Shown here one piece after another: positions 9,517 through 9,565 of a stretch of 11,019 nt of DNA. Both the position numbers and the translations under genes were made by a program. Location of the stretch: the IMG/VR virus record IMGVR_UViG_2600254997_000001; one strand, written 5' to 3'. Positions within the stretch are counted from its first letter, which is position 1; each line of letters starts with the position of its first letter. The notes beneath the pieces are model-generated. The model searched no databases and was not told the DNA's origin. It worked only from the letters and a program-made list of their open reading frames with translations. This DNA comes from a virus (Duplodnaviria > Heunggongvirae > Uroviricota > Caudoviricetes).

Positions 9517-9531
9517 CTTAGATTGTCTAAG
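9517..9531. promoter_or_regulatory. Candidate operator 1: palindrome CTTAG-ATTGT-CTAAG
   Basis: Perfect 5-bp inverted arms with a 5-bp spacer, 27 bp upstream of the XRE gene start, in the divergent intergenic region. Confidence 0.4.
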
Positions 9532-9552
9532 TATCTGTCATTGTTGTATACT
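9523..9552 (+). promoter_or_regulatory. Candidate sigma70-type promoter for the plus-strand small ORFs (-35 TTGTCT at 9523-9528, 18-nt spacer, -10 TATACT at 9547-9552)
   Basis: Hexamers read by eye (4/6 and 5/6 to consensus). Both are overlapped by the CTTAG/CTAAG palindromes, a typical repressor-operator layout. Not verified. Confidence 0.3.
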
Positions 9553-9565
9553 TAGCAATCCTAAG
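9551..9565. promoter_or_regulatory. Candidate operator 2: palindrome CTTAG-CAATC-CTAAG
   Basis: Same half-sites as operator 1, centre-to-centre spacing 34 bp. It lies 23 bp upstream of the ATG at 9588 and overlaps a TATACT -10-like hexamer. Confidence 0.4.

Follow-up and report, generated by a model that had tools for sequence, protein, structure and literature searches.

The window, i.e. the whole 11,019-nt stretch of DNA analysed here, is 99.8% identical to the E. coli chromosome NZ_AP027759.1. The left side of the island found there comprises two site-specific integrase genes as well as genes for a ~790-aa hypothetical protein (in the window, a 799-aa ORF at 6030-8429) and for a protein of 144 aa, a four-gene layout that matches the one described for GInt islands (PMC5385486). 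Onwards follow a 64-aa ORF and a gene for an XRE-family regulator (both on the minus strand), the twin palindromes under study, a partner gene on the plus strand that is a pseudogene here, retron Ec78, which consists of ptuB, ptuA and a reverse transcriptase gene, and an ABC-three-component system. The right end of the window (10369-11019, minus strand) corresponds to ptuB (PtuB HNH) of the Ec78-type retron, and the system is covered by 15471-18708 of locus L001. Through the retron (PtuB HNH, PtuA ATPase, RT) and the ABC-three-component system, the island thus carries anti-phage cargo. Altogether, the island is present in 275 of 5426 complete E. coli genomes, that is in about 5%.

The left part of the window differs from the reference locus. 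At a junction at 4864-4870, 277 bp of the second integrase gene are missing as compared to NZ_AP027759.1 (L001 9695-9964), and the junction displays 7 nt of microhomology. The resulting frameshift replaces a single 516-aa gene by ORFs 4818-5726 and 5491-6066, and therefore the recombination module of the island may be inactive in this strain. Positions 1-3262 represent a filamentous-phage-like prophage segment, which occurs with 99.2% identity in other E. coli genomes and encodes a Zot domain protein, a GspD/pIV-type secretin and a DUF2523 protein. This segment is non-collinear with L001, indicating that a different left junction lies beside the integrase genes in this strain.

The palindromes are located in a gap of 97 bp between the GTG start codon of the minus-strand XRE gene (9490) and the ATG start codon of the plus-strand partner gene (9588). 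The XRE-proximal site O1, CTTAGATTGTCTAAG at 9517-9531, reads CTTAG-ATTGT-CTAAG and is placed 26 nt from the XRE start codon, while the XRE-distal, partner-proximal site O2, CTTAGCAATCCTAAG at 9551-9565, reads CTTAG-CAATC-CTAAG and is placed 22 nt from the partner ATG. Both are exact 15-bp CTTAG-N5-CTAAG palindromes, as the original prediction had described them, and O2 extends to a 17-bp palindrome (9550-9566). The two sites lie 34 bp apart from start to start, leaving a spacer of 19 bp. This spacing agrees with the prediction; its description as about three helical turns does not hold, as 34 bp correspond to a non-integral ~3.2 turns. Within the 11-kb window, O1 and O2 are the only matches to the motif at ≤1 mismatch, as compared to 0.14 expected matches, and two matches were reached in just 2 of 200 shuffles. 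Hence, the occurrence of the twin palindromes is far beyond chance. A third operator through which the integrase operon or the retron promoter might be controlled was also considered, but no such site was detected across the window at ≤1 mismatch, and allowing two mismatches merely added chance-level matches at 4549 and 5611.

The adjacent XRE gene (9158-9490, minus strand) encodes a protein of 110 aa, in which Pfam recognizes HTH_3 alone. The PADLOC model Control_protein (PDLC03667), which was built for controller proteins of restriction-modification systems, matches this protein with E=5.5e-26 over 92 of 101 profile positions. A phmmer comparison with C.Csp231I (PDB 3lfp) yields E=2.4e-22 and aligns residues 9-93 to 4-88 with 39 of 85 positions identical, and the homology spans the C-terminal helical extension as well. 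Judged from its sequence, the window XRE is thus a member of the C.Csp231I/C.EcoO109I controller class rather than a generic HTH repressor. In this class (Sorokin motif 8), the C-box consists of two CTAAG-N5-CTTAG sites separated by an unusually long spacer (PMC3115060, PMC2632904). The layout in the window is the same: the regulator gene is preceded by two 15-bp palindromes of the 5-N5-5 type with an extended spacer of, in this case, 19 bp. In contrast to C.Csp231I, whose gene forms a C-R operon linked to REase and MTase genes, the window XRE is arranged divergently to its neighbour, and neither the window nor the 29-kb annotated locus contains an REase or MTase gene next to it.

The 64-aa ORF downstream of XRE (8980-9174, minus strand) overlaps the 3' end of the XRE gene by 17 nt and is probably co-transcribed with it. 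It comprises solely an Xre/MbcA/ParS C-terminal toxin-binding domain (Pfam PF09722, E=2.6e-11), and the NCBIfam model Xre_ParS_antitoxin covers it with its C-terminal half only. The order of domains, an XRE-type HTH followed by an Xre/MbcA/ParS C-terminal domain, resembles the antitoxins of Xre-RES/MbcA-ParS systems. However, those are single two-domain proteins encoded beside a RES/ART toxin gene, whereas the window contains two overlapping ORFs, and a RES-type toxin gene is not annotated in the 29-kb locus. The 64-aa ORF is found in part of the enteric clade only and is absent from loci L005 and L002 and from most other relatives. A toxin-antitoxin system was therefore rejected as a reading of this gene pair, given the split domains, the lack of a toxin gene and the absence of the ORF in most relatives. 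The ORF itself may be the leftover of an antitoxin.

A regulator-operator pair of this kind is already known and has been characterized experimentally in a close homolog. A C.Csp231I-related Xre of ~100 aa is encoded by I-F3b Tn7-CRISPR-Cas elements, in which two motifs precede xre and a further one precedes tniQ-cas (Petassi, Hsieh and Peters 2020, bioRxiv 10.1101/2020.07.02.184150). EMSA with the purified Xre demonstrated binding to these motifs, lacZ assays revealed repression of its own promoter, and Xre behaved as an activator once the proximal site was mutated (10.1101/2020.07.02.184150). The window contains the same cassette of a small Xre with two inverted-repeat motifs upstream of its gene. 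Moreover, the pXre promoter of Vibrio sp. 10N.286.45.B6 carries the motifs ACTTAG GATTG CTAAGT ... ACTTAG ACAAT CTAAGT (Supplementary Fig. S4b, 10.1101/2020.07.02.184150), both of which are base-identical to the operators in the window, the proximal pXre motif corresponding to O1 and the distal one to O2. Thus, binding and autorepression have been demonstrated for homologous proteins on identical sequences, and from the identity of the operators and the invariant recognition helix we infer that the window XRE acts likewise. What is new is the setting. In I-F3b elements, xre is located between tnsABC and tniQ-cas, the latter preceded by the third, single operator. The window, in contrast, lacks tnsABC, tniQ and cas genes as well as a third operator, locus L001 is likewise devoid of tns and cas genes, and the module is part of an E. 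coli island of the GInt type, where retron Ec78 and an ABC-three-component system are its neighbours.

Conservation of the operators was assessed in related loci of Enterobacterales, Vibrionales, Alteromonadales and Oceanospirillales. Scanning one genome per species yielded 80 loci, which represent a biased sample, as the search pattern favoured His-type proteins (see below). The twin-operator pattern scored 20/20 in 76 of the 84 scored loci with a constant period of 34 bp, and in all loci with the pattern the twin sites end 23-31 nt before the XRE start codon, whatever the type or orientation of the element. The XRE proteins of these loci are just 57-66% identical, whereas the operators are conserved almost base for base. 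The same is apparent in divergent E. coli loci: XRE is ~60% identical and the DNA match stops right after the second palindrome, with a nearly invariant block from O1 to O2. Including its N5 spacer, O1 is invariant in 72-76 of 81 aligned loci, and the consensus of the region in XRE sense is AAACTTAG-GATTG-CTAAGTATACA-gaAAT.agtaAAA-CTTAG-ACAAT-CTAAG. In ~670 kb of DNA from related loci, the exact motif occurs almost solely upstream of XRE homologs, the exceptions being one stray site and one duplicated twin pair. The stray CTTAG-N5-CTAAG site, the only one in 670 kb, lies past the helicase gene in a Vibrio Tn7-like locus (L076 72-86) and may be the single 'pTniQ' operator of I-F3b elements. The duplication is found in Pseudoalteromonas (L039), where two tandem twin sets (3825-3873 and 3918-3966), that is four palindromes, lie between xre and the partner gene.

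The genes adjoining the module vary: tnsABC in ~17 loci, tnsD/tnsE-like genes in ~9 loci and, in the enteric clade, recombinase genes of the GInt type. IncHI2-type plasmids carry the module as well. As the module directly borders recombination genes, which are gin-like genes of the GInt type here and tnsABC or tnsD/E elsewhere, the repeats might be taken for recombinase or transposase sites or for an end of the mobile element. Yet, their distance of 23-31 nt from the XRE start codon is the same in GInt, Tn7-like and IncHI2-type contexts, they are internal to the elements, and they match the operators of a controller from a non-mobile R-M system, so that a role as recombination sites has a practically negligible probability.

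A further argument for recognition by XRE is provided by the half-sites. The half-sites in the window, CTTAG/CTAAG, correspond to the CTAAG/CTTAG half-sites of C.Csp231I with the central base swapped in every half-site. The 1.8 A structure of the C.Csp231I-DNA complex revealed base-specific contacts by Ser32, Gln37 and His43 (PMC4321490), which align with S37, H42 and H48 of the window XRE (alignment offset +5) in the recognition helix SASSRMNH42YEKGRH48. Thus, the serine and the second histidine are retained, and the only base-contacting residue that differs is Gln37, replaced by His42. This is exactly the residue that covaries with the centre of the half-site: four Vibrio loci have CTAAG-N5-CTTAG at both operators in an otherwise identical scaffold, and these four, exclusively, carry the helix RMNQYEKGKH, while all others carry RMNHYEKGRH. 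Among the 81 aligned loci, 75 combine His with the central bases T-A-T-A and 4 combine Gln with A-T-A-T; the remaining 2 have His and a degenerate operator. The rule extends to outgroups, since the Gln-type proteins of a Klebsiella (L086) and a Xanthomonas (L087) plasmid adjoin CTAAG-N5-CTTAG, and His-type proteins on two IncHI2-type plasmids adjoin twin CTTAG-N5-CTAAG sites. In a blind test, Gln was predicted for the Xre of A. salmonicida S44 from its published CTAAG-type operators, and the sequence STASARMNQYEKGKH indeed contains Gln. The coordinated change of the half-site centre across the family suggests that the window system is a specificity variant of the C.Csp231I class.

Neighbour-joining analysis places the Gln-type Vibrio clade within the His family, with outgroups of the Gln type; the proteins of this clade are 66-68% identical to His members and 43-49% identical to C.Csp231I. 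This suggests at least two switches between Gln and His, albeit in a tree that is weak given such short proteins. A single ancestral switch may lie behind most of the His family, so that independent covariation events are few, about two or three. A C.Csp231I-like regulator on the Moraxella plasmid pMOSL3 carries Arg at the Gln37/His42 position next to a CTACG-N5-CGTAG site (L093 1417-1431), which hints at a more general role of this residue position in tuning half-site positions 3-4. Plasmid homologs at greater distance (Serratia/Yersinia with TTTAG-N5-CTAAA; Vibrio THAF64) were dismissed for the Gln/His rule, as their recognition helices are too different.

The palindromes could in principle also act as nucleic-acid hairpins, namely as a terminator, a structure in the 5' part of an mRNA or a cruciform, instead of protein sites. 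A scan flags 9511-9537 as terminator-like, and the swap from T/A to A/T retains self-complementarity. However, the flagged hairpin is O1 itself, four of the five half-site positions never covary across the 81 loci, and all five single half-site changes are uncompensated. In addition, the N5 'loop' is itself conserved, a pattern typical of a protein site overlapping promoter elements, and a search of the window against Rfam returned no RNA family. Considering also the demonstrated binding of a homologous protein to identical sites, the hairpin explanation is very improbable, and the palindromes are best understood as operators of XRE.

Both sites overlap predicted promoters. A consensus promoter scan in conjunction with family conservation places a putative sigma70 promoter of the partner gene at 9523-9552 on the plus strand, with the -35 sequence TTGTCT (9523-9528) inside O1, a spacer of 18 nt and the -10 sequence TATACT (9547-9552), whose last two bases are the first 2 nt of O2. 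These elements are retained family-wide, the -10 sequence in 78 and the -35 sequence in 72 of the 81 aligned loci. The overlap of the palindromes with -35-like and -10-like hexamers of the plus-strand unit, as originally proposed, is thus borne out, and the conservation of the partner promoter accounts for the conservation of the O1 N5 spacer and of the bases flanking O2. On the opposite strand, a region at 9530-9569 contains two candidate XRE promoters, both of which overlap the operators. The first, obtained from the promoter scan, is TTGACT (9569..9564)-18-AACAAT (9545..9540); it is conserved in the enteric clade only and is kept merely as one of two candidates. The second, derived from the family alignment, is TTGCTA (9558..9553, in the O2 spacer)-17-GATACT (9535..9530, overlapping O1). 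A leaderless transcript such as that of C.Csp231I was discarded for the window XRE, because the 26 nt between O1 and the GTG codon lack an acceptable -10 sequence. The two regulators also differ in the sigma70-contacting motif SQE of C.Csp231I, which reads SQR in the window XRE and TQK in loci L003 and L004. Activation by the window XRE is therefore doubtful, and this arm of the circuit may be missing.

On its other side, the operator region faces the partner gene (9588-10148, plus strand). The original prediction placed the sites between the XRE gene and small plus-strand ORFs. The location is correct, but the ORFs 9588-9830 and 9852-10148 are a single reading frame split by a TAA codon at 9828-9830. 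The TAA is present in the window and in L001, whereas the intact relatives L005 and L002 have GAA (Glu) at this position, and PGAP marks the gene as an 'internal stop' pseudogene in the 99.8% identical record NZ_AP027759.1. When intact, as in relatives, the gene encodes a protein of ~186 aa. A divergent ORF of ~175-190 aa is found beside nearly every XRE homolog, and an iterative profile search assigned 64 of 71 such ORFs to one family. The protein has no significant match in Pfam, NCBIfam, PADLOC or PHROGs, and the relatives retrieved by homology search are all annotated as 'hypothetical'. In an AlphaFold model (mean pLDDT 75), residues 8-76 form a winged helix, which is followed by a disordered linker and then by a long helical hairpin. 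The best matches in a fold search are PadR-type regulators, with modest scores, and the isolated wHTH fits MarR, BlaI and AspA-type domains at ~3 A. Accordingly modelled, the partner is predicted to be a dimeric, PadR-like wHTH DNA-binding protein, and the in-frame TAA falls just past the predicted winged-helix domain.

In 44 of 80 loci, the partner gene is followed by a gene for an SF2 helicase of ~460 aa (ResIII + Helicase_C), which is missing from the enteric GInt clade including the window. In some Vibrionaceae (L029, L040 and L048; C2 cluster), the ORF after the partner gene is 813-821 aa long as compared to ~460 aa, and may represent the helicase fused to an extra domain. A defence-system label for the helicase was not adopted, since searches returned just generic SF2/ResIII matches and weak partial matches to PADLOC PbeA. 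The divergent partner gene and the helicase go unmentioned in the published I-F3b text (10.1101/2020.07.02.184150).

Mobile elements often carry pairs of divergent regulators that use shared operators. In lambdoid CI/Cro regions, shared dyad operators lie over divergent promoters, providing autoregulation and induction upon entry into a naive cell. The window is reminiscent of this design in that the XRE repressor faces a divergent gene for a DNA-binding protein and the dyads overlap both promoters. It differs in having two operators rather than three, a partner with a PadR-like wHTH/coiled-coil architecture rather than a Cro-type HTH, neither linked prophage genes nor an evident cleavage or anti-repressor mechanism. 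It is conceivable that the palindromes are bound by the PadR-like protein, instead of or besides XRE, in a two-repressor switch of the CI/Cro type, as would fit a predicted dimeric wHTH protein whose gene is conserved next to the operators. However, the covariation involves an XRE residue known to contact bases, homologous Xre alone binds identical sites in vitro, and the classical A. salmonicida CAST possesses the same kind of operators in an element that has no partner gene. Binding of the palindromes by the partner is thus quite unlikely, although the partner may additionally bind nearby.

Taken together, with a probability of roughly 0.88 the twin palindromes are the proximal and distal operators of the adjacent C.Csp231I-class XRE, controlling the divergent partner gene as well as xre itself. 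The core of the original prediction, that is operators of a dimeric HTH repressor at a divergent gene pair, is upheld by the homology to the controller class, the conservation in the family, the covariation, and the EMSA and lacZ data for a homolog on identical sites. The proposal that XRE gates the adjacent small ORFs applies insofar as the operators overlap the conserved partner promoter; it needs to be amended in that the target is one gene, which is a pseudogene here, and in that xre is presumably autoregulated, too.

Mechanistically, one XRE dimer would bind each 15-bp site through its helix-turn-helix, with S37, H42 and H48 contacting bases and His42 going with the central T/A of the CTTAG/CTAAG half-site. 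By analogy to C.Csp231I, in which recruitment of the second dimer and tetramer formation depend critically on the length of the spacer (PMC4321490), two dimers positioned 34 bp apart probably cooperate via their C-terminal helices, with the spacer bent or looped. O1 would cover the partner -35 sequence and O2 the end of the -10 sequence together with the expected start site, so that XRE, once bound, should block this promoter and shut off the divergent gene. Since the same sites overlap the candidate XRE promoters, they could also mediate autoregulation of xre. In the tested homologs, activation works through the distal and repression through the proximal site, and C.Csp231I itself requires its distal operator to activate and its proximal operator to repress (PMC4321490). 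Upon entry of the element into a cell free of XRE, such a circuit may cause 'zygotic induction', that is, the divergent operon would be on until XRE accumulates. In the window the circuit is partly a relic. Given that the partner is cut right after its wHTH and that the usual helicase is absent, the switch may now mainly autoregulate XRE, and control of the partner gene may no longer matter in this strain.

The reading of 'twin palindromes between divergent genes', which was made from sequence alone, was hence correct, and the site is now linked to a class with crystal structures and binding data. Our additions are modest and concern the swap in specificity between His and Gln as well as the operon of partner and helicase genes, which is conserved. 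The change between Gln and His together with a single-base-pair change constitutes a clean natural switch of a recognition code on a solved scaffold. Gln-type C proteins kill E. coli through off-target binding within the Rac prophage (PMC9638921), and the swap could separate the regulators described here from Gln-type C proteins. More tentatively, and with considerable doubt, one may speculate that the cassette, nearly unchanged across such unrelated elements as Tn7-like transposons, GInt islands and IncHI2-type plasmids, provides two orthogonal 'immunity' specificities defined by His and Gln, and that the PadR-like protein and the SF2 helicase are cargo with an establishment or defence function that is expressed solely upon arrival in a naive host. 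If true, any newly arriving element would have its entry-induced operon silenced by a resident copy of matching type, whereas a resident copy of the other type would leave it active. Beyond this, the link to a structurally and biochemically known class permits confident annotation of the site in ~5% of complete E. coli genomes and in many other Gammaproteobacteria, in which the regulator would usually control a conserved and as yet unstudied operon of a PadR-like protein and an SF2 helicase beside the transposition or integration genes of several kinds of elements.
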